A stretch of DNA of 64,000 nt from an uncultured bacterium (GCA_965372795.1 CBDVDR010000002.1:96001-160000), one strand, 5' to 3'; shown: positions 20,259-40,327, numbered from the stretch's first letter. Translations and numbers: made by a program. The notes: a model not told the origin generated them from the sequence alone.

Positions 20259-21289
20259 TGGCTCAAAAGATTTTAATAAGAACCCCGAATCATCTGGGTG
20301 ACTGTATCATGGCTCTGCCCATGATAAGCGAAGTCGGAGAAGCATATCCGGGGGCGAGGGTCTCAATCTTAGTACCGGACTATCTGGCTGAGATTTTTGA
20401 AGCTAATCCATCTATAGATGAAATTATAAAGCTTCCTCCTAATGCCGTGCACGGATTATTGGCGGTAATGAAAATTAAAGATATTATTGCACCTTATGAT
20501 TTTGATTTAGGGTATGTCCTGCCGCCATCTTTCGGGGCGGTTGCCGGTTTTAAACTGGGCGGTATCAATAAGCGGATTGGATATATCGCCGATGGCAGAC
20601 GGCTGTTACTTACCAAAGCTATAACACTTCCGGCTCCATTAAATGCTGAACATCGCAGCCGGTTGTATTTTAATCTGCTTTTAAGGAGCTGCGATACGAA
20701 ACTTGAATATGTTCCCCCGAAGCTGTTCCTTAATGATACCGATCTTCAAAACGGCGAAAAGATACTGGCTCAATTTGGAATTGAGGGTGATTCAAATTAT
20801 GCGGTAATTGCATATCAAGCTATTGCTGAATCGAGAAGATGGGGGATTAAAAATTATACGGAACTGTGCAAGAGGATTATTTCAAAATACAATTGTAAAA
20901 TAGTATTAATGGGTGGGGCTGAAGAACAAAAAACGGGTGATGAGATGGCTGCCTCAACCGGAGGCGGTGAAGTAATCAATTTAGCCGGTCGGACATCAAT
21001 CAGGGAATCAGCCTCGATAATGTCTCAGGCTAAATTTTTTGTCGGGAATGATTCGGGAGCGGCACACCTCGCCGCATCAGTCGGCTCGCCTTTAGTAGTG
21101 TTATCAGGAGCCGATGATCCGCAGTCAACCTCACCGATCTCAAAAAGTAAGCGAATGATCTATCTGGACAAATTAGAATGTATCAGCTGTGTGAAAAATA
21201 AATGTCTGTTGAAAAATGATGAATTTATGCAGTGTATGACCGGAATCAGGGTTGAAATGGTACTTGAAGAGATCAATAAGTTAGTTTAG
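20258..21289 (+). CDS. waaF: LPS heptosyltransferase II (GT9)
   Basis: PNHLGDCIMALP; NLAGRTS; GNDSGAAHLAA; C..C....C. Confidence 0.85.
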   Translation: MAQKILIRTPNHLGDCIMALPMISEVGEAYPGARVSILVPDYLAEIFEANPSIDEIIKLPPNAVHGLLAVMKIKDIIAPYDFDLGYVLPPSFGAVAGFKLGGINKRIGYIADGRRLLLTKAITLPAPLNAEHRSRLYFNLLLRSCDTKLEYVPPKLFLNDTDLQNGEKILAQFGIEGDSNYAVIAYQAIAESRRWGIKNYTELCKRIISKYNCKIVLMGGAEEQKTGDEMAASTGGGEVINLAGRTSIRESASIMSQAKFFVGNDSGAAHLAASVGSPLVVLSGADDPQSTSPISKSKRMIYLDKLECISCVKNKCLLKNDEFMQCMTGIRVEMVLEEINKLV

Positions 21290-21302
21290 TAGTATAAAAA
21301 TA

Positions 21303-21464
21303 CTAGTTAATATCATCATCATCTTCTTCTTCAAAAATTGAATCATCATCTTCATTAAAAATTGAATTATCAGATTCGTTATTATAGGGTTGTTCAGATT
21401 TATTTTGTTCTGGTTTTCCCCAAGAAAATAAGGATTTTAATAAACTGATTATATATTGTCGCAT
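21303..21464 (-). CDS. Unannotated 53-aa small protein with amphipathic N-terminus and very acidic tail, probably leaderless
   Basis: MRQYIISLLKSLFSWGKPEQNKSEQPYNNESDNSIFNEDDDSIFEEEDDDDIN*; ATG lies 6 nt after a consensus -10. Confidence 0.6.
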   Translation of the reverse strand: MRQYIISLLKSLFSWGKPEQNKSEQPYNNESDNSIFNEDDDSIFEEEDDDDIN

Positions 21465-21470
21465 AATGAA

Positions 21471-21499
21471 ATTATATCTTTAAAAGAGTATATTGTCAA
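21471..21499 (-). promoter_or_regulatory. Perfect-consensus sigma70 promoter
   Basis: Minus strand TTGACA-atatactcttttaaaga(17)-TATAAT. Confidence 0.8.
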
Positions 21500-21826
21500 T
21501 ATAAAGGATTAATAAATGATGAATTTATGCAGTGTATGACCGGAATCAGGGTTGAAATGGTACTTGAAGAGATCGATAAGTTAGTTTAAAAGCAAAAAGA
21601 TCACTTACATCACATCACATTTGTAGCAAATAAATATTATATAGTTATATATCAGAGAGTTACGATGCGATGCTGATCATTGAAAATAGAATTGTCTGTT
21701 AATTTTATAGATTTATAAACTAATATCAAAATTTCATGTATAATGCGAAGAAATGATTAAACGATTTGTGTCCAAGAACGTTATTTTTTATGGTTGTCGC
21801 AGAAGCTGCGTTGCGTAAAATATTGC

Positions 21827-21854
21827 TTGACAATCTGATAGCATTTTCTATCTT
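21827..21854 (+). promoter_or_regulatory. Putative sigma70 promoter for the peptide/activator operon
   Basis: TTGACA-N16-TATCTT; IHF-like TATCAGAGAGTTA at 21650-21662 upstream. Confidence 0.5.
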
Positions 21855-21961
21855 AAAGTCAGCAAGAGTTGCGAATGCGTAACTCGTCATGTTTTAAAGT
21901 CTTATGAACGAAATCTATATTTTTTGCATATTTTTTTAATAATTTTCTGGAGGTAGGCATT

Positions 21962-22321
21962 ATGAGAAGCTCTAAACTAAAATTAATGATGATAATTTTA
22001 TCATTATTATTAGTTAGCTTTTTGTCCGTGCCTGTCTATTCCGGCAACGGTGACGAAGATCCATGGGATGCTGATGGTACCGATGGTCCAAATGATGGAA
22101 CAATCGGCGACATTGTGATACCTGGTCATGAATTAAAATCAATCGAGATTGAAGATGACCCGGGCATGGTAACTCCTTTGGATAACTTGATCTTCTCAAT
22201 ATCCTTTGAGATAGTAAATTTCTTTTATGGAAGTTCAAGAATGCCAACCAGTCAGTTGCTGGTAAATAGAAGTGTTACGGATAGCCGTATAAATGGTTCG
22301 GTTAATTTGAGTCAGAAGTAA
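21962..22321 (+). CDS. Small secreted protein / candidate signalling pro-peptide
   Basis: RBS GGAGG; Sec-type signal ending VYS; mature N-terminus GNGDEDPWDADG, acidic and low complexity. Confidence 0.7.
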   Translation: MRSSKLKLMMIILSLLLVSFLSVPVYSGNGDEDPWDADGTDGPNDGTIGDIVIPGHELKSIEIEDDPGMVTPLDNLIFSISFEIVNFFYGSSRMPTSQLLVNRSVTDSRINGSVNLSQK

Positions 22322-22359
22322 TTGACAAATAACCATTAAATTTTAAACACAAAAGAGTG

Positions 22360-25284
22360 ATGAATAAACCCTCACCTAAAATCACTTTTGATAACCGTCT
22401 CATTGCTGTGGAAGAGCAATTAAAGCAGAGGTTTTACAGTTCTGCCATAAAGGATTTGGCCGAGCTGTCGGAATCGATGTTTCCCGCAAATTATGAGCAA
22501 GGGTTATTTTACTTACTCAAAGCAGAAGTAGAGTACTTTGAGGGTAATTATCGTAAATCACTTGAATTAGGACTCAAAGCGGCAAGAATCCTTGCCGGAT
22601 TTCCATTAAATTGTCGTTATGGCAGAGCTCAAATAATTCTTTCAAAATCATATTCCGCCCTTGGTGATTTAAAAAATGCAGAGATGCGCGCCCGCGATTC
22701 ATTGTCTGCTTATCGCCGGGCAACAGAGAAGGTTGGACAGGTTGATGCTCTGAACGAATTAGCGCGTATTTCGCATATCCGTTGTAATTATCATTCAGCC
22801 GGTGAGTATCTTGAGGATGCGATTTCGATGTTGATTGATTCGCCTCGTAAAACAGCCCAATTATCCGGTAACCTGGGTATGATAAAAGTCAGAACCGGGC
22901 AGTGGGATGAGGCGGAAGAAAACCTTCAGGATGCTTTAAAGTTTAATCAGCAGAATAAAGAAGAGATTTCAACAGCGATAAATCTTTTATCGCTTGGATA
23001 TTTACAATTAAGACGCCGTCATTTTATAATGGCGAGTCGTAATTTTGATCAGGCTCTTGAAATTATCAGCCGTTTGGGTTTGAAAAGAGAAAAAGTTATT
23101 CATCTGGAGTATGCCGGAGAATTAGCATTTGAAAAGGGTGATATCTTCAAGGCGAAAGCATTTTTAAGTGATGCTTACCAGAAGGGTATGATGCTGGCAC
23201 CGGGATCTTCATTAGTATCTCAAACGAGCCGTCGTTTAGGCGAAGTAGAACTTGCCCTGGATAATATTGATGATGCGATGAAATATGCCCAGAAGGCATT
23301 GGAGCTTTCATCTTCATTGGGTGAGAAACTTGAGATCGGCTTGTCACACAGAGTGATAGCTCAAGTATTTGTTTCCAAAGGCGATTATCAGTCAGCTTTG
23401 GAATATATTGATCAGGCGGTTGATATTTTACGAACCGTTGACGAGCCTTATGAATTAGCCCGCACGCTTTTAGTTCAATCTGATGTAAAAAACAATTCCC
23501 GGATAGACTCATCAGATTCAATAGACAAAATATTGCATGATGCCTTGAAAATTTTCAAGAAACTGAAACTTGAATTTTGGATAGCAAAAACAGATTATGA
23601 AATAGGCGTTTATTCCTGTCAGACGGGAAATCTTTCGAGCGGATTCAGACAGCTCAATCGAGCCGAGAAAATTTTCAGCAAGCTTGATGAACAGCCGGAA
23701 CTTAGAACCGTAAACAAATTTTTAAAGTCTCTTTCAGATCAGGCAGTAGCCTTATCAATTTCAAATCAGAATAAATTTAAAGTATTCGGCAACCTTGTCA
23801 CGCCCAACGATGAGTCTGATTTGGAAAGCGACCGGATGGAAGATATTCTTAGGGTTGTTTTAAAGAAAACCGATGGCGACCGCGCCGTTATTTATGCCCC
23901 TGATAATGAAGATGAGCAAGTTATAGCATCCTGTCCGATGAAAGAAGATAATGTCAGGCAATTTGTTACTAATTTTGAGAAGCTTTTAGGTGAAGAGGTT
24001 TCGAAACACAAGCCAACCTTGTTGCTTGATTGCCGGCGGGATCCATTTATTAATGGGCTGTTTAAAGATATCGCTGCCCAGATTGGATCTGTTATTGTAA
24101 TACCATTTAAGATGGCGACTAACGGGACTTGTTATTTATATCTTGATCGTATCTCACGGGAGAATACTTTGAATCCATTCAGTCAGGAGCAATTGAATTT
24201 TTCAGTCGGTTTCTCAGATTTGATCGGGTTTAAATGGACTGAAATTCAAAAGAATCTGCTGCTTGAGGATAATTTACGGCTTAAATCACAATTGATGGAG
24301 AAAGCCACTTTTTCGAAGATTATCACTCAGGATCATAATTTCCTTGAAATGTTAGCCCAGGTGCAGCATGTTGTAAATTCAAGTATTTCAATTTCAATCG
24401 AGGGTGATACCGGATGCGGCAAAGACCTTTTTGCCCGTGCGATTCATTATAATTCAGTAAGAAGAGATAAACGGTTTATCTCGGTGAACTGTGCGGCGTT
24501 GCCGGAGAGTTTACTTGAGTCGGAACTGTTTGGATATGTTCGCGGAGCCTTTACCGGAGCTGACCGTGATAAAGCGGGACTGTTTGAAGAGGCTGACGGC
24601 GGAACATTTTTCTTAGATGAAATCGCTGATATGCCGATGAGTGTGCAGGCGAAGATATTGCGGGTGCTTGAGTCAAAAGAGATTGTACGTCTTGGTGATT
24701 CGATCCCTAAAAAAATAGATGTTCGGATACTTTCTGCGACTAATAAGAATCTTAAAGAGCAAATGGATGCCCGACTATTCCGTCAGGACCTTTATTTCAG
24801 ACTGGCTGCCTTTACATTTAAACTGCCCGCCCTGAGTGAACGGCGCGGCGATATACCGTTATTGGTTGACCATTTCTTAAAAGGCAGTTCGAAGAAAATT
24901 TCTGCGGATGTGCTCAAAGCCTTTGATGGCTACGATTGGCCGGGAAATATCCGTGAACTTGAGAATGAGATCAAAAAACTGGTGCTTCTGTCGGGTGACA
25001 GCGTACTGATTGACACTTCGTTATTATCAAACCAGTTTAAAGAGAGCAATACTGTCTCTGATAATTCTGAAAAAGCATTGTTTGATTCTACAAAATCAAT
25101 CTCATTTAATGATGATTATTCTTTGTATGATTTCCTGTCTGAACATGAGAAAAGATTCATTATCAACGCCCTCAAAGAGAAATTGGGTGTGAAGAAACAT
25201 GCTGCGGCTTTACTAAAAATCCCCGAATCGACCCTTCGTCTGAAGATCAAACAGTATAATATTGACATAAAAAATCTTCACTAA
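22360..25284 (+). CDS. Sigma54 enhancer-binding protein with N-terminal TPR array, GAF-like domain, AAA+ and Fis-HTH
   Basis: About 460 aa of TPR-like helices; GDTGCGKD, ESELFG..RGAFTGA, FLDEI, WPGNIREL, HTH AAALLKIPESTL. Confidence 0.92.
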   Translation: MNKPSPKITFDNRLIAVEEQLKQRFYSSAIKDLAELSESMFPANYEQGLFYLLKAEVEYFEGNYRKSLELGLKAARILAGFPLNCRYGRAQIILSKSYSALGDLKNAEMRARDSLSAYRRATEKVGQVDALNELARISHIRCNYHSAGEYLEDAISMLIDSPRKTAQLSGNLGMIKVRTGQWDEAEENLQDALKFNQQNKEEISTAINLLSLGYLQLRRRHFIMASRNFDQALEIISRLGLKREKVIHLEYAGELAFEKGDIFKAKAFLSDAYQKGMMLAPGSSLVSQTSRRLGEVELALDNIDDAMKYAQKALELSSSLGEKLEIGLSHRVIAQVFVSKGDYQSALEYIDQAVDILRTVDEPYELARTLLVQSDVKNNSRIDSSDSIDKILHDALKIFKKLKLEFWIAKTDYEIGVYSCQTGNLSSGFRQLNRAEKIFSKLDEQPELRTVNKFLKSLSDQAVALSISNQNKFKVFGNLVTPNDESDLESDRMEDILRVVLKKTDGDRAVIYAPDNEDEQVIASCPMKEDNVRQFVTNFEKLLGEEVSKHKPTLLLDCRRDPFINGLFKDIAAQIGSVIVIPFKMATNGTCYLYLDRISRENTLNPFSQEQLNFSVGFSDLIGFKWTEIQKNLLLEDNLRLKSQLMEKATFSKIITQDHNFLEMLAQVQHVVNSSISISIEGDTGCGKDLFARAIHYNSVRRDKRFISVNCAALPESLLESELFGYVRGAFTGADRDKAGLFEEADGGTFFLDEIADMPMSVQAKILRVLESKEIVRLGDSIPKKIDVRILSATNKNLKEQMDARLFRQDLYFRLAAFTFKLPALSERRGDIPLLVDHFLKGSSKKISADVLKAFDGYDWPGNIRELENEIKKLVLLSGDSVLIDTSLLSNQFKESNTVSDNSEKALFDSTKSISFNDDYSLYDFLSEHEKRFIINALKEKLGVKKHAAALLKIPESTLRLKIKQYNIDIKNLH

Positions 25285-25396
25285 CTGACCTTCCTTTTTA
25301 ATCATTATATAATCTGAATTAACTCGCCTGAAGAAGCGTCAACTGTTCTTGTTGACTTATTTTAAGGAGCCGCCTACTTTTTTAATGAATTCATAA

Positions 25397-27163
25397 GTGG
25401 AGGCTATTCAGATTTTGAAAAAAATAGATGCGGTTTCAAAAACAATCATTTTGATAATGGTAATGTTCCTTATCAGTGTTTCAGGAGTAAATGCTCAGAG
25501 CAGGGTTTATCTTCAGAATGTTGTGGGTCTTAATCATCTTGACCGGATAATTCCTAATACTACAATTAAATTTCAGATTGCTTTAAAAAATAGTGAAAAC
25601 GCTAATATATTGACATTGTCGCATGGTTTTCAGGTTTATTCGCCTGATGGCGCAAGTTGGGGGGGGACTACGGCTCAACGAACGGGAAATATTAACACCA
25701 GTTTTGAGACGATTGCGCTGATTTTGTTAAATACCGATGGCGTTGGCGCTGATACGGTAGGGATCACAGCTGTTAATGGGAATCAAAACGGGATATCAGC
25801 CGGGTTTGATGCAATTTTTCTCGAGATTATATTAGATGGAATAAGTGAATTAGATTATGGCACAACAGTCTGCCTTGACAGCAGTTATTTAGAACCGGAC
25901 GGAATGTGGCTCTGGTCAAATTTTTATGGTGATTTGATTCCTGAGTGGGATGGTCCTCATTGTTTTGAGGTTGCCTGTATAACCGATGATGATTCTGACA
26001 GTGACGGGGTTGGCGATGTCTGTGATAATTGTCCTCTTATAAATAATTCTGACCAGTATGATTTTGATGAGGACGGGTTTGGGCAACTTTGTGATTGTGA
26101 TGATTTAAACGCCGATTTGAATGATAATTCTATCTGGCGTGTGGATGCCGATGGGGATGGTTTCGGGTCGGATGCTTTGACAATAGTTCAATGTGAGAAG
26201 CCGGTTGGTTATGTTTTAAATAATAGCGATTGTGATGATTCTGATGAAACTATCGGAGCACCTGAAACATGGTATGAGGATTTTGACGGGGATGGATATG
26301 GTAATCCGTTGAGTACGATCTTTAGTTGTGAAATCCCGAGTGGGTATGTGACTAACAGTTTGGATTGCGATGATGCCAAGAGTGAAATCTCACCGGAAAC
26401 GGTTTGGTATCTCGACGCTGACGGGGATGGTTATGGTAATGCAGTTGAAATGACATCAAGTTGTTTGCAACCTGATGGATATGTAGATAACGATACCGAT
26501 TGTGATGATACTAATAGTGATTTATCACCGGTAACAGCTTGGTATCTTGATGCTGATGGGGATGGTTACGGTAATGTATCTGAGAAGGTGTTAAACTGTT
26601 TACAACCGGATGGATATATAACAGATCTAACCGATTGTGATGATGCCAGGGCTGAAATCAATCCGCTGACACGCTGGTTTGAGGATGTTGATCTGGATGG
26701 GTTTGGGGATGTTGGAACTGTATTAATCGGGTGTGAACAACCGGACGGCTTTGTTTCAGATAGTACCGATAATTGTGTTGAGAAATATAATCAAGATCAG
26801 GCGGATATAAATAAAAATGGTATCGGGGATGTGTGCGAGGATCAGCAGACTTCGGTTGAGTCGGTCGAGTCAGAAAGTTTGCCGGATGAATATCAGTTGG
26901 GACAGAATTACCCGAACCCGTTTAATTCATCAACCATATTCAGGTATGGGACACCTAAATCCGGTTTTGTCAGGTTGACGATTCATAATCTGCTTGGGCA
27001 GAAAGTGCGAGTTCTTTATGATGGGGTGCAATCAGCCGGTTATTATTTAGCCAGTTGGGACGGAAAGAACGAGACTAACAAGAATGTCCCGAGCGGGATT
27101 TATTTTTATAAATTAGAATCTACGACGGTAACTATTTCAAGGAAATTGGTGCTGGTTAAATAA
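25397..27163 (+). CDS. Secreted protein with Cys/Asp-rich MopE-like metal-binding repeats, TSP3-like repeats and FlgD-Ig/T9SS-like C-terminal domain
   Basis: About 5 W(Y/R/F)xDxDxDG(Y/F)G...CxxPxG(Y/F)...D(C)D repeats; DSDGVGDVCDNCP; QNYPNPFN...KLVLVK. Confidence 0.8.
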   Translation: MEAIQILKKIDAVSKTIILIMVMFLISVSGVNAQSRVYLQNVVGLNHLDRIIPNTTIKFQIALKNSENANILTLSHGFQVYSPDGASWGGTTAQRTGNINTSFETIALILLNTDGVGADTVGITAVNGNQNGISAGFDAIFLEIILDGISELDYGTTVCLDSSYLEPDGMWLWSNFYGDLIPEWDGPHCFEVACITDDDSDSDGVGDVCDNCPLINNSDQYDFDEDGFGQLCDCDDLNADLNDNSIWRVDADGDGFGSDALTIVQCEKPVGYVLNNSDCDDSDETIGAPETWYEDFDGDGYGNPLSTIFSCEIPSGYVTNSLDCDDAKSEISPETVWYLDADGDGYGNAVEMTSSCLQPDGYVDNDTDCDDTNSDLSPVTAWYLDADGDGYGNVSEKVLNCLQPDGYITDLTDCDDARAEINPLTRWFEDVDLDGFGDVGTVLIGCEQPDGFVSDSTDNCVEKYNQDQADINKNGIGDVCEDQQTSVESVESESLPDEYQLGQNYPNPFNSSTIFRYGTPKSGFVRLTIHNLLGQKVRVLYDGVQSAGYYLASWDGKNETNKNVPSGIYFYKLESTTVTISRKLVLVK

Positions 27164-27221
27164 GTTAGTTTTCTTGTGCATCTGCTTGTTTTCTCTGTGA
27201 ATTATAATCATATTTATCGCT

Positions 27222-28007
27222 ATGGCGGCTCTGTTTTATAAGCATTATGCAGGTGATCCATATTTCAATATGGGTTTTGATGAATACCTTTTTTCCAAAG
27301 CATTCGAAAGTGATGAACTGTTTGCCCTGAGGCTTTACAGCTGGCAACCGGGGGGGATTACAATCGGTTTGAATCAGGATAAGGATAGAGCGATTAACTG
27401 GAGCAAGATTGGCCGGACGCCCGTTATTCGGCGGGTGACGGGAGGGAGAGCGATTTATCATGATCCGGGCGAGTTGACTTATTCGGTGGCTTATAGAAAT
27501 ATTAAATGGGTTGATTCAATTACTGCTGAAGATTTAAAAATGTTTTCAGAGAAAGTTGCCTCGGCACTGGTTGGTTTTTTGAAATTGATGGGGATTAGTT
27601 CGGAGTTCAAGCGGGTAGTGTCAAAGGCTGCCATTGAAAAGAATTATTTTCATAAGGCACCCTGCTTTGCATCGGTGGCCCGTCATGAGATATTATCAGA
27701 TGGACAGAAAGTAATAGCATCCGCTCAAAGGGTGGTTGAAAATAAAATTCTTCAGCACGGTTCAATCAAAATCGCAAGAATTTCGACTCATGAGGCACTT
27801 GTGGGGGGATCCGAAGAAACGGAAAAAGGGGAAGTGACACAAGCAGTTAGCTTTGAATATTTTACCCAGGCAGCTGGCCGGTTACGAGGATCTTTTGAGT
27901 CAGAGTTTGGAGTGTTATTTGAAGAATGTGAAGAATCTGACGGGGATGATAATCGTTTGCATGGAAAAATAGATAATGTTCGAAAAAATCCATTAATAAA
28001 GCGTTAA
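27222..28007 (+). CDS. Lipoate-protein ligase A / octanoyltransferase family
   Basis: NMGFDE, LRLYSW, RRVTGGRAIYH, KVIASAQR, LQHGSI. Confidence 0.88.
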   Translation: MAALFYKHYAGDPYFNMGFDEYLFSKAFESDELFALRLYSWQPGGITIGLNQDKDRAINWSKIGRTPVIRRVTGGRAIYHDPGELTYSVAYRNIKWVDSITAEDLKMFSEKVASALVGFLKLMGISSEFKRVVSKAAIEKNYFHKAPCFASVARHEILSDGQKVIASAQRVVENKILQHGSIKIARISTHEALVGGSEETEKGEVTQAVSFEYFTQAAGRLRGSFESEFGVLFEECEESDGDDNRLHGKIDNVRKNPLIKR

Positions 28008-28277
28008 AAAATTAAACAGTCAGTGCTAATAAAATGTCTATAAAATGACGAAATTGCGGTTTTAAAAGGAAAAATCGCTTGACTTGTGAGCCAATTTTTG
28101 GCTATTCTTTATTTTTGTATTCTTATTGTATATCCTTTTTAGTCTGGGGTATTATAACAATATGAAAACAAATAAGTTGGGAGCTTTCAGGGTGTAGAAC
28201 TCTGAGTCGTAAGCACTTTTTTTAAAAGTGTTATGAACTTGAAAAAATGCGATAAAAATATCCAGGAGGTAGTCTGT

Positions 28278-31200
28278 ATGCTTGGTCGTCAAAGACTCAA
28301 TCTGACAAGCTTTATAATCACATTTCTGTTGTTAGCAGCAGTGCCGGGAATGGTTTTCGCCGGACCTGGACAGGTTAAAGGTCAAGTAATTGATAAGTCG
28401 ACTAGTGAACCTGTCATTGGTGCATCGGTTTTTATAGTAGGTACAACCTTAGGTGCCCAAACAGATTTTGACGGTAACTATATTATTCGCCAAGTAGATC
28501 CTGGCAATTATGTTGTCCGCATAACTCATATCGATTATAACGCGATGGAAGTTTCTGATGTTACAGTTCAATCTGATTTATCCTTTGAAGTATCCCCGGA
28601 AATGGAACAGAAGGTTACCGATGTGGGTGTTACCATTAGGGTAACCGCCGAACGTGACATTATTGATAAATTTGTAGTTTCTAACCAGGTCTCGATGTCT
28701 AAAGAAGAGATTGCTCATCGTCCGGTAAGTACTGTAGATGAACTTCTCACTTCGGTTGCCGGGGTTGTCACGAATCAGTCGGGTGATATTTTCATTCGCG
28801 GTGGTCGTGCCGGTGAGGTTGCTTATTATGTTGATGGTGTGCCAATCGGTGATCCGCTTGGCGGACTTGGACAGGCCGGGGCAGCTTTATCTTTAGTTTC
28901 CGGTTCAATTCAGGAATTTACAATTATTAAAGATGGTTTTGATCCTGAGTATGGTGATGCGCTATCCGGTATTGTTAAGATTACTACCCGTACCGGTTCA
29001 AAAGACAACACTAATATTAACTTTCAGTACATAACAGATGATTTTGGAAATGCGTCATTGAATAAATATTCGCGTAACAGTGATTTTGTGCGTCTTTCAT
29101 TCTCCGGTCCGGATCCATTTTTGAAAAACAAAATTTTACCAGCCCTGGGATTGGGTTTTCTTGAAGATAAAGAATTTACTTATTACATTTATGCTGAAGT
29201 AGACAAAAACGACGGTACTTTCCAGTATCAGGATTATGACACTCCGATTACCCGCCGTGACAGTGATGCCTTTAATCTATTTGGCATTGACGTACCTGAT
29301 CGTTTAAATAATAAATATTACTGGATGGCTAACTTCAAATTCAGACCTCGTCCGAATCTGAAATTTATTGTATCGATAAAAGATTCTCAGACTCGTCGTA
29401 CCTTATTTAACTGGGGTCAGCGTTACAGTTCTGCTGTTGCTCCGGTACAAGAAGATAAATGGTCATCAGCATCTATTGAAATTTCACAGTCAATTTCAAA
29501 AGAGATGAACTACGAATTTTTGTTTTCATATAAGATCAATGAAACAAATCAAAAACCGGGTGATCCAAATAACCCCGGCAAAGGTTTGGATCCTGATCAG
29601 TTTTATTTAGATCGTGAATGGGAATCCTGGGATGATACAATTCAGAATGGTATCTATGATCCACCGGAACCGATTTATAACTTATTCCCTGATACGACAA
29701 CCAATTTACGCTATGGTGATTACACCGGACCGGTTTGGACCGGAAGTGAAGTACAGGCTGACTTTACCGATGCGGGATTGTATTTTGACAGCGGTTTCTT
29801 CCGATTCAACGATAATGGTGTTCTTGATATGCTTGAAGGCGAACCATTCCTTGATTTAAACGGTAATGGGGTATGGGATCGCGGTGAATATTTACATGAT
29901 CGCAATGGCAATGGTCTGTTGGATTATGATCGTCTTCCAAATATATCAAACAGTACTCCTGAACCATATACCGATGGTGACTCGATTATTGGTGAACCTT
30001 ATTCCGATGTCAATGCTAATGGTTTTTATGATCGCGGAATTGATATTTTTATTAAGTCAACCGGACCGGATAATATGGACTTTAACCATAATGGTCAGTA
30101 TGATGGTCCTAATATTAATGCTTTGGAATGGACCCCTGAAATTCCATTTGCAGATCGTAACGGTAACGGACTTTATGATCCGCCGAACGATAATTATGAC
30201 ATTGGTGAACAATTTGTAGATTTAAACGGCAATGGAAAGTATGATCGTGGTTCATCTTTTCTTGATCCAATGAACTATACTACTTCATCCACCTGGCATC
30301 ATCGTAAAACTAAAACGATGCGTGGTGAATTTAAGATATTCCGTCAAATGGGCAACCATGAAATAAAATCGGGTCTTGCCTTATTTCAAAATGATTTTGT
30401 ATATCAGGAAATCGTGAAACCATACCTGCTCTATACCGGTCGTCCTGATAGTGTTGGTGGCATTCCTGCTCCATATCCTACCCGGGGCGCTTTTAGAGAT
30501 ATGTTCCGTTATGATCCATGGGGTGGAACTTTCTATCTTCGCGATAAAGTAGAGTATGGTTCGATGATCGCGTCGCTTGGTTTCCGCTGGGATTTCTTTA
30601 TTCAGGATAAATATGATTTGGTCGAAGTTGCTAAGAACGATGATCTTGGCTCCGGCATAATTTTAGGCGATCGTCAGAAAATATCTCCTCGTCTCGGTTT
30701 CTCCTATCCAATTTCTGATAAAGCCAAAGTTCATTTTAACTATGGTCATTTCTTCCAGCTTCCATCGCTGGTCAGAATGTATTCTCGTAATACCAGTGCC
30801 ATTAACGAAAATGATGTTTTAGGAAACTACAATCTGGATTACCAGAAAACGATTCAGTACTCATTCGGTGTAAAATACGCAATGAGTGAGAACTACTCGA
30901 TTGATTTTTCAGGTTATTTTAAAGATGAATTTGACAAGATTAACTCTCACCAGATTAGAATCGGCGGTTTGACTCGTCAGCAGTATCAGAACGCAGATTA
31001 TGGTCGTGGGCGCGGTGTAGAAATTACAATGGAAAAACGCGGTGGTGGTTATGTTAACGGAATGCTTAGTTATACTTACGCTTTCTCGTTCGGTAAAGCA
31101 TCCCAGACTAATGAAGACTATTTGACTGATTTCGAATTGTCTCGTGAACCGTTAAGTGAAGCCTCACTTGATAATGATGTACGTCATTCGTTTAAATCAT

Positions 31201-31634
31201 CAATTCAGGTGTTTGTACCGGGAACCGTGAAACCTCGCTTATTTGGAGTTCCGATTCCAAATGGCTGGTCGATGTCGATTGAGACTCTGATTGAGAGTGG
31301 CCGTCCCTTTACTCCAAGTCGTGAATATCCAAACATCACTTCGGCTGTCGGTGAAGACATTCAACGAAACTCCTTACGACGCCCTACTATTATAAACTTT
31401 GATTTAAGATTTACAAAAGACTTCGAGCTGGTTGGACTTGATTATAAATTTATTCTTTGGGTTGAAAACATTTTTGATAATAGAAATGTAAATTTCGTCT
31501 ATTCCAATACCGGTCGTCCCGATACCCAGCAGAACATAAACCAGATAATTCTTGGCGGCACCGAATTCGATTTGAATCCTTACAACTGGGATTATGGTCG
31601 TCAGGTAAGAGTTGGCATAGAAATTAACTTATAA
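28278..31634 (+). CDS. TonB-dependent outer membrane receptor with N-terminal carboxypeptidase-regulatory-like domain and inserted DxNxNG repeats
   Basis: GQVID...EPVIGASV; IRGGRAGEVAYYVDG plug; SPRLGFSYP; C-terminal RQVRVGIEINL; RBS AGGAGG precedes ATG 28278. Confidence 0.9.
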   Translation: MLGRQRLNLTSFIITFLLLAAVPGMVFAGPGQVKGQVIDKSTSEPVIGASVFIVGTTLGAQTDFDGNYIIRQVDPGNYVVRITHIDYNAMEVSDVTVQSDLSFEVSPEMEQKVTDVGVTIRVTAERDIIDKFVVSNQVSMSKEEIAHRPVSTVDELLTSVAGVVTNQSGDIFIRGGRAGEVAYYVDGVPIGDPLGGLGQAGAALSLVSGSIQEFTIIKDGFDPEYGDALSGIVKITTRTGSKDNTNINFQYITDDFGNASLNKYSRNSDFVRLSFSGPDPFLKNKILPALGLGFLEDKEFTYYIYAEVDKNDGTFQYQDYDTPITRRDSDAFNLFGIDVPDRLNNKYYWMANFKFRPRPNLKFIVSIKDSQTRRTLFNWGQRYSSAVAPVQEDKWSSASIEISQSISKEMNYEFLFSYKINETNQKPGDPNNPGKGLDPDQFYLDREWESWDDTIQNGIYDPPEPIYNLFPDTTTNLRYGDYTGPVWTGSEVQADFTDAGLYFDSGFFRFNDNGVLDMLEGEPFLDLNGNGVWDRGEYLHDRNGNGLLDYDRLPNISNSTPEPYTDGDSIIGEPYSDVNANGFYDRGIDIFIKSTGPDNMDFNHNGQYDGPNINALEWTPEIPFADRNGNGLYDPPNDNYDIGEQFVDLNGNGKYDRGSSFLDPMNYTTSSTWHHRKTKTMRGEFKIFRQMGNHEIKSGLALFQNDFVYQEIVKPYLLYTGRPDSVGGIPAPYPTRGAFRDMFRYDPWGGTFYLRDKVEYGSMIASLGFRWDFFIQDKYDLVEVAKNDDLGSGIILGDRQKISPRLGFSYPISDKAKVHFNYGHFFQLPSLVRMYSRNTSAINENDVLGNYNLDYQKTIQYSFGVKYAMSENYSIDFSGYFKDEFDKINSHQIRIGGLTRQQYQNADYGRGRGVEITMEKRGGGYVNGMLSYTYAFSFGKASQTNEDYLTDFELSREPLSEASLDNDVRHSFKSSIQVFVPGTVKPRLFGVPIPNGWSMSIETLIESGRPFTPSREYPNITSAVGEDIQRNSLRRPTIINFDLRFTKDFELVGLDYKFILWVENIFDNRNVNFVYSNTGRPDTQQNINQIILGGTEFDLNPYNWDYGRQVRVGIEINL

Positions 31635-31670
31635 AAAATGATTTATAACATAGAAAAGGTTGAGGACAGC

Positions 31671-32663
31671 ATGGATTTGAAAAATAGTCAAACATATCAT
31701 ATGAATAAGAGGGCATTCAGTCGGACTGTACTGTCACTGATTCTTGTGATTGTTGTGTTTGCTTTGTTTTCTCCAACCCAGGTTTTTGCCCAGGCAAAGG
31801 TCGGAACCACGGGGGCACAGTTTCTTGAATTAGGCGTGTCAGCTCGTGCAATGGGGATGGCAGAAGCATTTACAGCGGTTACAGATGACATCTCAGCCGT
31901 GTACTACAATCCGGCGGGGTTGACTTCGCTATATGGTAAAGAAGCGATGTTTACTTATATAAAATTGCCATCTCATGTAAACTTCGCTTTCGGTGCAATC
32001 GGATTTCCGCTTGAATCGATTGGTGGAGTTTTAGGAATAGGTATGTATGCATTGACTTCGGGAAGCATGATTGAACGTACCTGGGGTTCCGGAACCTATG
32101 CGGGTACCGGAAGAACATTTGCCTGGAATGATTTTTCATTGTCTGTTAGTTATGGCCGTTATTTGACTGACCGTTTCTCGATTGGTTTTACAATGAAATA
32201 TATTGGTGAATATGTTCATGATTATACAGCCAGTGGCTGGGCCGCTGATGTTGGCACAATGTACGATACCGGTTATCGCGGTTTTAGAATCGGAATGATA
32301 ATTGCCAATTTCGGACCTGATATGACGTTTATTGATAATGGTTATCCTCTTCCTATTAACTTTAGATTTGGCGCTTCTATTAACGTGATTGAGGGATATG
32401 ATCATATCCTGACCTTCTCAGCCGAAGGCGCCCATCCTTCTGATAACCTTGAAAAATATAATAGCGGTTTGGAATATTCGTTTAAGGATATGGTTGTTCT
32501 CCGTTTTGGCGGACGATTCAATTATGATGTTGATGGATTTACTGCCGGTGCCGGACTGAGATTGCCTTTTGGTGAGGATCGGGAAATGAGCATTGATTAT
32601 GCTTTTCAGGAATTTGGAATCCTAACCGAAGTGCATCGCTTTACTTTTTCAATGGCATTTTAA
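31671..32663 (+). CDS. PorV/PorQ-family outer membrane beta-barrel protein
   Basis: AQFLELGVSARAMGMAEAFTA...YYNPAGL; C-terminal HRFTFSMAF. Confidence 0.85.
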   Translation: MDLKNSQTYHMNKRAFSRTVLSLILVIVVFALFSPTQVFAQAKVGTTGAQFLELGVSARAMGMAEAFTAVTDDISAVYYNPAGLTSLYGKEAMFTYIKLPSHVNFAFGAIGFPLESIGGVLGIGMYALTSGSMIERTWGSGTYAGTGRTFAWNDFSLSVSYGRYLTDRFSIGFTMKYIGEYVHDYTASGWAADVGTMYDTGYRGFRIGMIIANFGPDMTFIDNGYPLPINFRFGASINVIEGYDHILTFSAEGAHPSDNLEKYNSGLEYSFKDMVVLRFGGRFNYDVDGFTAGAGLRLPFGEDREMSIDYAFQEFGILTEVHRFTFSMAF

Positions 32664-37294: not shown

Positions 37295-37310
37295 CGGCAT
37301 AGCCTTTGCT
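37295..37310 (+). promoter_or_regulatory. Sigma54 (-24/-12) promoter
   Basis: cGGCAtagcctTTGCt (GG-N10-GC) 33 nt upstream of the S8 gene; TGCA-N9-TGCA at 37151-37167 as candidate enhancer. Confidence 0.65.
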
Positions 37311-37343: not shown

Positions 37344-40277
37344 ATGATGAAACAACTTAATATCTCTTATTTGATAAAATCAATAATATTTGTTTTTGCC
37401 TTTTTGGTAGTTACCAATATAGGTATTGCCGAGGGGTTATCGCCCAATTTAGAAAAATTAGTTAATCAATATAATGAATCCGGTCGGGATTCTTTAATTG
37501 AGGTTGTTCTGTTTTTTGAAGATGATTATCGGATTCAAAAATTAGAAGAGATTTCATCCAATAAATTATTTTCCCGTTCCGATAGAATTGAAGCCGTCTT
37601 AGATGAACTTCAAACCAATCCGGTCTCGAAAATTTCACGAAATATCAAATCACTTAGCGCCAAGCCGGTTAAAGAGTATTGGATTGTGCCAGCCATGTCA
37701 ATGCAGATCAATCTTAGTCAGGTTGATTCGATTATGTCAATTGAAGAAGTTAATTCAATAGTTGAAAATGTTTATCTTGATTATATCGCTCCGGTTGAGA
37801 TGGAAGAAGTCAAGTCGGCGGCATCGCTGACGGCTTCGGTTACTGATCAATTGAAGCTTTTGAAGGTTCCGAGTTTATGGGCAAAGGGTGTTACCGGTAA
37901 AGGCAGTTTGATTTGTTCTTTTGATACCGGAGTTGAGGGAACCCACGAAGCCTTGCAATCAAAATGGCGCGGGAATAAGGCGACTTTGTCGGCGAGCTGG
38001 TTTTCAAAAGATACTCCTGATTCATTGCCCTCTGATAATATCGGTCATGGCACTCACACGATGGGAATTATGGTCGGTTCGACACCGACTGATAGTTTTG
38101 GCGTAGCACCGGGAGCCGAATGGATATCAGCCGGGGTTGTAGATCAGGGCAGAACCATGACGATGACGCTGGCTGATATTCTTGAAGCTTTCCAATGGGC
38201 TTTAAATCCGGATGGCAATACGAATACATTTGAAGATGTTCCTGATGTTATTTTAAATAGCTGGGGTGTGCCGAAAGGTTTGTTTGCGCCTTGTGATGAT
38301 AAGTTTAACGGTGTAATTGCCGCTTGTGAGGCAGCCGGAATCGTAACAATTTTTGCCGCCGGCAATGAAGGTCCTGACCCGATGAGTATGCGCTATCCGG
38401 CAGATTTAGCTATCAGCCCGCTAAATACATTTTCTGTCGGGGCGGTTGATAATTTTAAAGTCGTGGCAAATTTTTCAAGCCGGGGTCCTTCATCATGTGA
38501 CGAACGGTCGGTGAAACCTGAGGTGGTAGCTCCGGGGATGACTATCAGATCATCTTATAAAGGGGGCGGATATTTTATTATGAGCGGTTCTTCGATGGCG
38601 GCTCCTTATGTTGCCGGTATTGTTGCGCTGCTGCGTCAGTCTTATCCCAATGCTTCGGTTGAAGAGATCAAAAATGCTATTTTATATTCGGCGGAAGACC
38701 TGGGAGCAACCGGAGAAGATAATAATTACGGGTATGGTTTAGTTGATGCTGAAAAAGCGTTAGAGCTTCTTTCGGATCCTGATGAGTCAAACTTTGTGCT
38801 TTCATCCTTTAGTATTTTAAATAACGGTATCGCTCTTCCGGGTGAAACCTTTCAATTGCAACTTTCATTGCATAATCCAGCCGGAAATGTGGAACAGGTT
38901 TTTGGACATATCGCTACGGCTGAAACAAACGAGATTGAAATTTTGAATAATGATGTCGCTTTCTTTTTTGGAATTGGCGGAACGAACGCTTTGAGCAGTT
39001 CGGTATACAATATCAGCATCAGTGAAAATTTATATCACGGTCAGCAAGTTCAATTTGAATTGACGGTCAATAACCAGTTTGGTGAAATTATGAATACTCT
39101 TGGTTTTGAGATGACGGTCGGATTTATGCCTAAAGGTAAAAAGGGCGACCATGTAAATAAGGAAATTACGCTTACCGTTTCAGATTTTGGACAGTATGGT
39201 TTAGCCGCCGGATCAATTTATAATGCCAAGGGTGAAGGTTTAAAATATAACGGCAGTCAGAATCTTTTGTATGAAAGCGGAATTATTGTCGGTCGGGGGA
39301 TTGCTCAGATATCAAGTTCGGTTCGTGACAGCAACGCTTTGTTTGTACCCTCTGATTTTAAACCGGTGCGGGAATTAACTGATGGTAATTACGGAGTTGA
39401 CGGCGGGTTTCATCGGACAGCATCGTTTACCGATAACGGAAGTCCCCGTTCAGTGCCGATTATTATCAATCAGGAGACGATTCATTTTAACAATGGTTAT
39501 GATGACGGAATAGTAATTTTTAAATATTTTCTTAGGAATAGTCTGCTGGAAACATTGCATGATGTTTCGTTTGGATTCTTTGCCGATTTTGATCTACCCG
39601 GATTAGGGGAGAAGCTTGAGTTTAATAAAGATTTGAATCTGATTTATCAGAAGAACGCAAATGGGACAATCGTTGGTTTGGTCGGTTTAAATAATGTTAA
39701 AAACTTTACCGCTATTGAAAATTCTGATCCGACAATGGGTAAAACAGGCTTTACGGTATCAGAAAAATTAGATTTAATTATGAAGCAGGGTGTTGATGTT
39801 AATTCGAGCATAGTCGGGGATATGATGTTTTTGGCTTCGACCGAACCGTTTACTTTGAGTATGAATGATTCGATAGAAGTAACTTACGGGCTTCTAACGG
39901 GATCTTCGGTGAGTGAAATATTACAAAAAGCTTCGATTGCAATTTTGAAGTTTGGTCTTTTAACCGATGTTAATGAGAATATTCAGGAAGTTCTGCCATT
40001 TGACTTTGAACTGAACCAGAATTATCCCAATCCATTTAATCCGACAACGAGCATATCTTTTACAATTGCAAAATCAAGTGAAGTTGAACTGACCGTATTT
40101 AATATGCTTGGTCAGGAAGTGAAAAGCCTTCACACCGGATACCTTCAAAACGGCAATCATTCGATTGAATGGGATGGCACAAATAACGCCGGGATGGCTG
40201 TTTCATCGGGTGTTTATTTCTATCGTTTGTCGATGGCGGCCGGTTCTGAGACTAAAAAGATGGTTTTATTAAAGTAA
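37344..40277 (+). CDS. Secreted S8 protease (bacillopeptidase F-like) with FlgD-Ig/T9SS-like C-terminal domain
   Basis: FDTG / HGTHTMG / GSSMAAP; FSSRGP; QNYPNPFNP...KKMVLLK. Confidence 0.9.
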   Translation: MMKQLNISYLIKSIIFVFAFLVVTNIGIAEGLSPNLEKLVNQYNESGRDSLIEVVLFFEDDYRIQKLEEISSNKLFSRSDRIEAVLDELQTNPVSKISRNIKSLSAKPVKEYWIVPAMSMQINLSQVDSIMSIEEVNSIVENVYLDYIAPVEMEEVKSAASLTASVTDQLKLLKVPSLWAKGVTGKGSLICSFDTGVEGTHEALQSKWRGNKATLSASWFSKDTPDSLPSDNIGHGTHTMGIMVGSTPTDSFGVAPGAEWISAGVVDQGRTMTMTLADILEAFQWALNPDGNTNTFEDVPDVILNSWGVPKGLFAPCDDKFNGVIAACEAAGIVTIFAAGNEGPDPMSMRYPADLAISPLNTFSVGAVDNFKVVANFSSRGPSSCDERSVKPEVVAPGMTIRSSYKGGGYFIMSGSSMAAPYVAGIVALLRQSYPNASVEEIKNAILYSAEDLGATGEDNNYGYGLVDAEKALELLSDPDESNFVLSSFSILNNGIALPGETFQLQLSLHNPAGNVEQVFGHIATAETNEIEILNNDVAFFFGIGGTNALSSSVYNISISENLYHGQQVQFELTVNNQFGEIMNTLGFEMTVGFMPKGKKGDHVNKEITLTVSDFGQYGLAAGSIYNAKGEGLKYNGSQNLLYESGIIVGRGIAQISSSVRDSNALFVPSDFKPVRELTDGNYGVDGGFHRTASFTDNGSPRSVPIIINQETIHFNNGYDDGIVIFKYFLRNSLLETLHDVSFGFFADFDLPGLGEKLEFNKDLNLIYQKNANGTIVGLVGLNNVKNFTAIENSDPTMGKTGFTVSEKLDLIMKQGVDVNSSIVGDMMFLASTEPFTLSMNDSIEVTYGLLTGSSVSEILQKASIAILKFGLLTDVNENIQEVLPFDFELNQNYPNPFNPTTSISFTIAKSSEVELTVFNMLGQEVKSLHTGYLQNGNHSIEWDGTNNAGMAVSSGVYFYRLSMAAGSETKKMVLLK

Positions 40278-40327
40278 ATCTTTCATTTGGAACTTAAAGG
40301 AAAGTCATTTAGTTTAATATATAGAAG

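Follow-up and report, generated by a model that had tools for sequence, protein, structure and literature searches.

Why does a gene for a small, apparently exported protein stand directly in front of the gene for a cytoplasmic sigma54 activator with a tetratricopeptide repeat (TPR) sensor? The question is raised by positions 21,962 to 25,284 of a 64,000-nucleotide (nt) stretch of DNA from an uncultured bacterium (GCA_965372795.1 CBDVDR010000002.1:96001-160000), the whole of which we call the window. The genome that contains the window (G000; 3.35 Mb, 98.65% complete) is a metagenome-assembled genome of Candidatus Zixiibacteriota, and the orthologous loci come from Candidatus Zixiibacteriota, candidate division GN15, and the FCB group. 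A preliminary description of the locus had proposed a peptide-sensing system analogous to RRNPP quorum sensing. We found a conserved gene pair that, judged from its sequences, looks like a signal and its receptor, and the portions of text returned by our literature searches describe no such pair, in line with the preliminary description, which knew of no characterized example. The reading that we favor, at a probability of about 0.42, is that the small protein and the activator are cognate partners, a motif in the former being bound by the TPR superhelix of the latter and thereby switching sigma54-dependent transcription. The pair has the following features (dN/dS, ratio of nonsynonymous to synonymous substitution rates):

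21962..22321, + strand: gene for a small, predicted exported protein of 119 amino acids (open reading frame, orthologs upstream of the activator, dN/dS)
21962..22042, + strand: predicted Sec signal peptide, residues 1-27, cleavage after V-Y-S (sequence features)
22055..22075, + strand: Trp-acidic motif E-D-P-W-D-A-D, residues 32-38 (sequence logo, dN/dS)
22175..22228, + strand: predicted amphipathic aromatic helix, residues 72-89 (AlphaFold2 model, hydropathy)
22357..25284, + strand: TPR / GAF-like / sigma54 AAA+ / HTH_8 enhancer-binding protein of 975 amino acids (Pfam, NCBIfam, structural model)
22393..23760, + strand: TPR superhelix, residues 13-468, the proposed ligand-binding sensor (AlphaFold2 model, structure alignment)
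23803..24156, + strand: GAF-like alpha/beta domain, residues 483-600 (structural model; weak sequence matches)
24319..24816, + strand: sigma54-interaction AAA+ domain with GAFTGA (Pfam, 8.3e-65)
25135..25257, + strand: Fis-type HTH_8 DNA-binding domain (Pfam, 1.1e-08)

By its sequence, the activator is a genuine sigma54 enhancer-binding protein, unusual in its sensor. Known control of sigma54 activators is exerted either through partner proteins or through domains such as receiver, GAF, PAS, and V4R. Here, Pfam places Sigma54_activat (PF00158) at residues 655-820, together with AAA_lid_14 and with HTH_8 at residues 927-967; the GAFTGA, Walker A, and Walker B motifs can be read in the translation, and the Pfam scan of the protein shows no receiver domain. 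The intact GAFTGA-bearing AAA+ domain, the helix-turn-helix, and the missing receiver of the preliminary description are thus all borne out, as are its roughly 460 amino acids of TPR-like repeats: TPR_12 is the best repeat family (1.9e-25), TPR_MalT also matches (5.3e-12), and an AlphaFold2 model of residues 1-648, with a predicted local distance difference test score (pLDDT) of 91.2 and a predicted template modeling score (pTM) of 0.84, shows about eleven helical repeat pairs over residues 13-468, an alpha/beta domain over 483-600, and a long connecting helix over 610-647. Calling the 483-600 domain GAF-like, as was done before, is weakly supported: The alpha/beta fold speaks for it, as do the NorR, NifA, and FhlA models of NCBIfam, which align from residues 491-499 onward, whereas the Pfam GAF profile, although matched over positions 6-130 of 133, reaches only E = 0.23 and a PDB sequence search with this part returned nothing significant. 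Translation of the activator may start at GTG 22357, which leaves a gap of 35 nt after the small reading frame, or at ATG 22360, which leaves the 38 nt originally reported. The genome encodes RpoN (rpoN; PF04552, 4.1e-56, G000:C13:95642-96118) and roughly 15 sigma54 activators.

The small protein begins with MRSSKLK, runs through a hydrophobic core, and continues as VYS|GNGDEDPWD (predicted cleavage context VYS|GNGDEDPWDADG), and its ATG is preceded, 9 nt upstream, by the ribosome-binding site GGAGG; the strong ribosome-binding site, the Sec-type signal peptide, and the mature N-terminus noted earlier were all recovered. The Sec signal is recognized by a basic N-terminus, by small residues at -3 and -1, and by a hydrophobic core whose median Kyte-Doolittle value is 2.52 (19-residue windows, 84 unique relatives), and the AlphaFold2 model of the protein, built on 150 sequences, places a helix at residues 3-21. 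Searches of Pfam and NCBIfam gave zero family matches. The same 84 relatives, 79-136 amino acids long (median 114.5), share a motif of the form E-(H/D/N)-P-W-D-x-D, usually 1-3 residues past the predicted cleavage site, with E in 65 sequences, then H, D, N, or G, P in 82, W in 79 (F in 5), D in 79, then A, V, or S, and D in 78. It is followed by a variable linker rich in G, D, S, T, N, and P, by an aromatic amphipathic helix, and by a polar tail that ends in K or R in 51/84. The model finds no compact fold (pTM 0.30) and is mostly disordered, apart from a short turn at PWDAD and the helix at residues 72-89 (pLDDT 86-88). A role of this C-terminal helix as a membrane anchor was ruled out, its median Kyte-Doolittle value being 1.02, with more than 1.6 in only 5 of the 84.

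Selection acts most strongly on the motif. Across 23 pairs of sequences that are 55-97% identical (the pairs are non-independent, and 3 of them are the same gene twice, which adds no differences), dN/dS was 0.15 in the signal peptide, 0.02 in the motif, 0.39 in the linker, 0.35 in the helix, and 0.49 in the tail, and hence below 1 in every region. These per-region values indicate that the small reading frame is a real protein-coding gene with its strongest constraint on a seven-residue linear motif. TPR solenoids bind short linear motifs of this type in disordered stretches, as an analogous case shows: According to the accessible text of one study, the concave groove of kinesin light-chain TPRs takes up W-acidic peptides (PMC6214655), the ligand of these TPR_12-type repeats being a disordered segment in which Asp or Glu residues flank a Trp. 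The likeness is one of analogy, not homology, and the kinesin system is eukaryotic and cytosolic and has no export step, unlike the system proposed here. The family extends well beyond the initial set. A profile search over 1.84 billion representatives returned 303 members at E <= 1e-3 and 142 at E <= 1e-10; among the representatives listed, all were stand-alone proteins of 79-140 amino acids, and PW[D/E/G] was present in 145/145 of those newly listed, so that the conservation of a (D/E)xPW-type motif anticipated by the preliminary description holds. A word-indexed homolog search yielded 15 matches, all "hypothetical protein" or unnamed and without a Pfam family, and the ESM Atlas gave weak leads (0.81-0.82) to hypothetical proteins of about 110 amino acids from Eiseniibacteriota.

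The two genes stay together. Searching 41 relatives from four families of one order with the TPR/GAF part, we found an ortholog in 41/41, at 36-71% identity. Upstream DNA was read at 30 loci (G000 and 29 relatives), and a small reading frame of 79-152 amino acids stood upstream on the same strand in all 30, ending 18-148 nt before the activator; each of the 30 had a signal-peptide-like N-terminus and then directly E-x-P-W-D-x-D or a close variant. Five further relatives showed weak small-protein matches directly beside the activator match, and in G026, G029, G032, G034, G035, and G037 a single-sequence query gave no adjacent match, their upstream DNA not having been read. A scan of genome_contigs with one genome per species confirmed an activator relative on 121 stretches, of which 80 were kept; 7 of these carried too little upstream DNA, which left 73 testable loci. 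The small reading frame was present in 73/73, in 69 by the pattern of a signal peptide plus P[WFY][DNGE] and in 4 as variants recognized by eye (EHAWDAD twice, EHPWTVE, and DNPWTED). The pattern fits the expected place in 69/73 loci and, across 1.1 Mb read in six frames, matches elsewhere only about 32 times, so that chance falls far short of explaining the pairing. Absence of the small reading frame from homologous loci, or of a conserved motif, had been named beforehand as refuting, and the outcome was in favor of the pair: Homologous TPR activators do carry the secreted reading frame upstream, as had been predicted.

The spacing within these loci bears on a reading in which the small gene acts through its translation rather than its product. 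The stop codon of the small gene floats, tail length and intergenic gap being inversely correlated (r = -0.81), whereas the activator start keeps an almost constant distance from the Trp codon (median 302 nt, standard deviation 20) and a fairly constant one from the helix-coding region (median 174 nt, standard deviation 22). A secretion-monitoring leader of the SecM/VemP/MifM type, in which export-dependent arrest would tune translation of the activator, could draw on this fairly constant helix-to-start distance and on the position of a signal-peptide reading frame directly upstream in the same operon. In those systems, however, a conserved C-terminal arrest sequence lies near the regulated ribosome-binding site; here, the conserved motif precedes the activator start by about 300 nt, far from both the stop codon and the downstream ribosome-binding site, the C-terminal part is variable and holds no conserved arrest-like sequence, and the TPR domain would be left without a ligand. 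We consider such a leader highly improbable.

The arrangement is repeated by paralogs, which we sorted into three classes by their activators: class 1 of the 975-amino-acid type, class 2 of about 750 amino acids, and class 3 of 710-735 amino acids. A second pair in G000 (G000:C13:82285-85965) joins a 126-amino-acid exported reading frame, with DDHPWGGEE and then a helix of the TGYLILDF type, to a 749-amino-acid TPR/AAA+/HTH activator that lacks the GAF-like part, the small gene stopping 2 nt before the activator gene. Of many secondary activator matches, 20 were fetched, 14 in class 2 and 6 in class 3. A small exported reading frame with (D/E)(D/E)HPWGG(D/E) accompanied all 14 of the former, one of which reads HNWGG, and an exported reading frame with a looser acidic-Trp motif accompanied all 6 of the latter, one of which has an unresolved activator start; the class 3 motifs include DEDPWGEG, GDDTGWHE, YAHPWDDP, EWPWVDG, and GDEGGWDEP, with tandem copies in two. 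In both of these classes the small gene and the activator gene abut or overlap. The type of motif thus tracks the class of receptor, as expected of cognate partners. Downstream of the second pair in G000 lies about 1 kb without a reading frame of at least 110 amino acids, with rpoN 11 kb further on. Class 2 operons have a TTGACA promoter and lack the palindrome of class 1, and their leaders contain conserved, hairpin-like GGGA...TCCC elements.

Upstream of the class 1 pair, the DNA has a regular layout of promoter and operator-like sites, with these members in the window:

21796..21812, no strand: operator-like palindrome 1, GTCGCAGAAGCTGCGTT, just 5' of the -35 box (67/70 regions, weight matrix)
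21827..21854, + strand: sigma70-type promoter of the two-gene operon, TTGACA-16 nt-TATCTT (10/12 matches)
21859..21875, no strand: operator-like site 2 (GCA-N5-TGCG) at the predicted transcription start (61/67 loci with site 1)

The -35 box occupies 21827-21832 and the -10 box 21849-21854. The order of a palindrome, TAAgATATTGCTTGACA at the -35 box, a -10 box, and TGGCAAAATATGCG at the predicted start is shared by 67/70 upstream regions, and CGCA-N5-TGCG was found at the palindrome position in 67/70; the family consensus of palindrome 1 is GGCGCAG-N3-CTGCGCC, that of site 2 is TGGCAAAATATGCG, and the ATATTGCTTGACA block of the promoter is conserved across loci. Palindrome 1 is the top-scoring site of the whole genome (22.5 by weight matrix), and sites 1 and 2, 63 nt apart, are its best-scoring pair. 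Activators of the NtrC type use 17-bp 7-N3-7 palindromes to repress the sigma70 promoters of their own genes. The activator resembles them in its GAFTGA-bearing AAA+ domain, in its Fis-type helix-turn-helix, and in the two 7-N3-7 palindromes that flank its own sigma70-type promoter, and differs in having no receiver domain and in a sensor made of TPRs and a GAF-like domain. It probably autoregulates its own promoter through the two palindromes.

A sigma54 promoter of the operon was considered and rejected: A consensus scan of the window gave 22 matches against 24.2 expected, and of the GG-N10-GC sites found 5' of the small reading frame in 31/69 loci, many fall on the palindrome and not on a promoter. 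A sigma54 promoter would need 2 nt more between GG and GC than site 2 has. In G000 as a whole, exact CGCA-N5-TGCG occurs 9 times against about 15 expected, and the weight-matrix scan and the search for site pairs yielded only scattered candidates besides the operon. Across 41 genomes, the counts of the pattern GGCGCARNNNYTGCG did not clearly exceed those of a reversed-pattern control, the operon sites excepted and the totals unsummed. Three operator-like sites 55-76 nt apart occur at G000:C23:476-623 in a 550-nt stretch free of reading frames that is bounded by the tRNA-like end of the contig on one side and by a convergent gene's 3' end on the other, with no evident promoter or gene. An Rfam search over 20500-28500 of the window gave only a sub-threshold match to a small nucleolar RNA.

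Which genes might the activator switch? Among 48 strong sigma54-like sites in G000, one has a high-scoring operator-like site (AGCGCAGTGTTTGCGTT, score 17.0) 192 nt upstream. This sigma54-type promoter, TGGCAGGATTCTTGCA on contig G000:C12, precedes the gene of a 1716-amino-acid PKD/Ig protein with a sorting domain of the type IX secretion system (T9SS; G000:C12:78963-84600, L164), which is the sole candidate output that we found. In a genome of the same genus, the promoter block is almost identical amid diverged DNA, with GGCGCAGAGATTGCG 245 nt upstream. A sigma54-type promoter, mostly of the form TGGCC(C/T)nnnTCTTGCA, lies at the starts of giant-gene homologs in 7/10 further genomes and in 9/12 overall. 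Operator-like sites with a score of at least 10 at 100-300 nt upstream, found at 167-287 nt, occurred in 4/9 genomes against 0.17 expected, or in 3/8 with the discovery genome excluded. The giant-gene homologs form repetitive paralog families, whose orthology past the gene start is uncertain. Their promoter region also includes a long conserved leader that holds a TTGAC...TATATT element. Control of the S8 protease, an output that had been proposed initially, found no support. The S8 peptidase gene at 37344, which encodes a T9SS tail, does have the sigma54-like CGGCATAGCCTTTGCT at 37295-37310, 34 nt before the gene, yet this site has 2 mismatches, the count of such sites is that expected by chance, and no operator-like site was found upstream of the gene (best score -4.2). 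In this region (37344-43120), the S8 gene is followed by a gene for an M6 peptidase that also has a T9SS tail.

On the reading of a cognate pair, the two genes would be co-transcribed from the sigma70-type promoter and the small protein, mostly disordered, would be exported by Sec. The cut of signal peptidase would leave G-x-E-H/D-P-W-D-x-D at or near the new N-terminus. The motif, set free in the periplasm as a short peptide and re-imported, or else still part of the protein, would then enter the concave channel of the 11-repeat TPR domain, where its binding would alter the hold of the TPR and GAF-like parts on the AAA+ domain. This change would switch sigma54-dependent transcription of distant targets, for which the giant T9SS surface protein is the best candidate.

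Binding itself was addressed by co-folding activator residues 1-648 with the whole mature small protein, both entered as alignments. The median score was 0.37 (runs 0.37, 0.58, and 0.02) against 0.00 for the best of three controls, and the runs agreed in at least 21% of contacts. The mark that was applied is reached by 116/157 solved complexes and by 2/215 mismatched pairs; scores that reach it at 0.60 or below come from only 18/157 solved complexes and from both of the passing mismatches, and the verdict was weak support. Co-folding, a check named in the preliminary description, thus placed the pair above its controls, with one run at 0.02. We realigned the TPR model with known structures as well; it has the fold of a ligand-enclosing superhelix. 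Foldseek's own top ranks were LGN/Pins, TSK, APPBP2, and OGT, with no RRNPP receptor first. After realignment, APC5 reached Z 31.4 (root-mean-square deviation 3.3 over 424 residues) and APPBP2 Z 30.9; domain III of MalT (1hz4) reached Z 29.9 (deviation 3.7, 356/366 residues), phage and Bacillus Rap with bound pheromone Z 28.2-29.4 over about 350 residues, NprR Z 25.4, and AimR Z 23-24, the RRNPP receptors deviating by 4.4-5.6 over about 320-350 residues. The TPR model thus aligns with the RRNPP receptors Rap, NprR, and AimR (Z 23-29), but in a nonspecific way, since APC5, APPBP2, and MalT did as well or better.

These results also bear on an account in which the two gene products never bind directly. 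The small protein would then be a co-expressed effector of the periplasm or surface, for instance one that is acidic and disordered and binds metals or components of the envelope, and the TPR and GAF-like domains would sense something else. The G/D/S/T/N/P-rich linker, the lack of a fold of its own (pTM 0.30), and the weak co-fold outcome suit this account, and so does the sugar-sensing TPR of MalT domain III, which matches as well as Rap. That NorR, NifA, and FhlA use their GAF domains to bind small ligands counts in its favor too. It sits badly, however, with a one-to-one pairing kept in three paralog classes with class-specific motifs, with abutting or overlapping genes, which are the pattern of interacting partners, and with a strongest constraint that falls on a seven-residue linear motif of the TPR-bound kind. 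On balance, we regard it as rather unlikely.

Several observations weigh against a cognate signal and sensor, and are best read beside what is known of comparable systems. The accessible text on RRNPP_detector (PMC10075063) gives as the RRNPP signature a propeptide of 10-100 amino acids with a Sec signal and, as its direct neighbor, a receptor of 250-500 amino acids with C-terminal TPRs, and states that its authors discard receptors with N-terminal TPR regions. Like the RRNPP pairs of Bacillota and of their phages and plasmids (Rap-Phr, NprR-NprX, PlcR-PapR, and AimR-AimP), the pair discussed here sets a small gene with a Sec signal (by sequence features) next to the gene of a cytoplasmic receptor with TPR_12 repeats, and several paralogous pairs occur per genome. 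At 119 amino acids, though, the small protein is longer than the known propeptides, and the receptor has 975 amino acids with its TPRs at the N-terminus. The helix and tail, conserved under purifying selection, appear to be more than a mere pro-region needs. The motif, moreover, is nearly the same across the phylum and similar between paralogs within one genome, unlike that of diversifying pheromones, and its likeness between paralogs raises the question of cross-talk. In the co-fold, the partner had a pLDDT of 30-36 and one run scored 0.02, and the modeled superhelix resembles RRNPP receptors in a generic way, given that APC5, APPBP2, and MalT rank equal to or above Rap. Binding of the palindromes by this activator is suggested by their position, and the candidate target is a lead from a scan of 48 sites, in which the first case was selected and the genomes are kin.

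Topology adds a further point of this kind: With a positive charge at the N-terminus of the small protein and an acidic flank, the prediction is that the motif is exported and so lies outside the cytoplasm, while the sensor is predicted to lie inside. RRNPP peptides are re-imported via Opp, and the OppA-type binding protein (PF00496) has 0 matches in G000 and is found in 8/41 relatives; POT and CstA were not found in G000, the only genome searched for them. OPT transporters (PF03169) are present, with 2 genes in G000 and matches in 40/41 relatives. Should a peptide return, OPT rather than Opp would be the candidate importer, its presence being only permissive. In G011, the orthologous activator is followed, at a distance of about 2 kb, by a gene for an OPT-family transporter (G011:C2:73349-80263); in other genomes this transporter gene lies elsewhere.

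The topology would be solved without any importer if the small protein acted before its export. In such a scheme, the TPR domain would bind the unexported precursor through the motif or the helix, Sec export would remove this anti-activator, and the activator would report secretion capacity or the state of the envelope. FlgM with sigma28 and the secreted regulators of type III secretion follow the same logic. The scheme accommodates the tight coupling of the genes (class 1 gaps of 25-127 nt, with classes 2 and 3 abutting or overlapping), the purifying selection on the whole mature protein and not just on a short peptide, and the fact that what co-fold support there is came from the whole mature protein. 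Constitutive and fast Sec export, on the other hand, should keep the cytoplasmic pool small, the strong hydrophobic core (median 2.52) argues for efficient targeting, and the parts of the literature that our searches returned hold no precedent for a Sec substrate acting in this way on a sigma54 activator. Both the anti-activator and the sensing of secretion capacity or envelope state that would follow from it seem to us decidedly unlikely.

How close, then, does a cognate pair come to known signaling systems? Since several RRNPP traits fail, we speak of an RRNPP-like logic at most, and not of membership: Of the analogy drawn in the preliminary description, the Sec signal, the TPRs, and the adjacency held up, and the size, the architecture, and the Opp route did not. 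The output differs as well, RRNPP receptors acting through a helix-turn-helix or a phosphatase and the present activator through a sigma54 AAA+ motor. Further differences are the position of the motif at the mature N-terminus, the second conserved element in the form of a helix, the phylum-wide sameness of the motif, and the diderm host, a member of the Zixibacteria. MalT and other bacterial transcription activators with TPR sensor superhelices offer another parallel, a TPR solenoid at the N- or C-terminus serving as the ligand sensor of an ATPase-driven activator, in keeping with the TPR_MalT match; MalT, however, is a sugar-sensing STAND ATPase with no partner gene, whereas the present sigma54 AAA+ protein has a small gene as its constant companion.

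Downstream of the pair, two genes recur in relatives:

27222-28007, + strand: LplA/B-like gene, syntenic neighbor (Pfam)
28233-31634, + strand: CarboxypepD_reg/Plug outer-membrane receptor-like gene, syntenic neighbor (Pfam)

The LplA-like gene lies downstream of the activator in 41/54 loci and the receptor-like gene in at least 22 loci of relatives (one count gave 23 loci, which may include that of the window, and another 22 loci of relatives). Both are syntenic neighbors that may or may not belong to the system, and no conserved sigma54-like site precedes either. Directly after the receptor-like gene stands a gene for a PorV-like outer-membrane protein (31638-32663), and for this reason the two may belong to the T9SS and not to nutrient uptake. 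Between the activator and the LplA-like gene, a T9SS-tail gene of 588 amino acids with thrombospondin-like repeats (25397-27163) is an insertion specific to G000, with one partial match to its tail in 53 loci. On the other side of the pair, the last 22 or so codons of a heptosyltransferase gene that ends at 21289 are repeated at 21520-21589 (EFMQCMTGIRVEMVLEEIDKLV*). The insert of about 230 bp between the two copies holds a very acidic reading frame of 53 amino acids on the minus strand (21303-21464), preceded by a perfect TTGACA-17-TATAAT promoter at 21499-21471. By its sequence, the segment 21290-21590 resembles a small insertion that duplicated its target.

To our knowledge, no cytoplasmic TPR receptor that responds to a genetically encoded, exported peptide is known outside the Bacillota and their mobile elements. 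If the pair is what it looks like, a cassette found throughout a phylum and multiplied by paralogy would add a new class of input to sigma54 regulation. A wider picture, which we hold as doubtful, is that Zixibacteria use gene-encoded Trp-acidic peptides as signals, which are exported by Sec, trimmed in the periplasm, and re-imported by OPT, each read by its own TPR-sigma54 activator in several channels per genome, with the PWD channel switching on giant T9SS surface adhesins. On this picture, the system would be the first RRNPP-like peptide-receptor signaling in a diderm, as well as the first with a sigma54 output. The pair lends itself to direct testing with one peptide, one domain, and one reporter, and, if it proves to be a signal and its sensor, would extend peptide or protein signaling to uncultured diderms.

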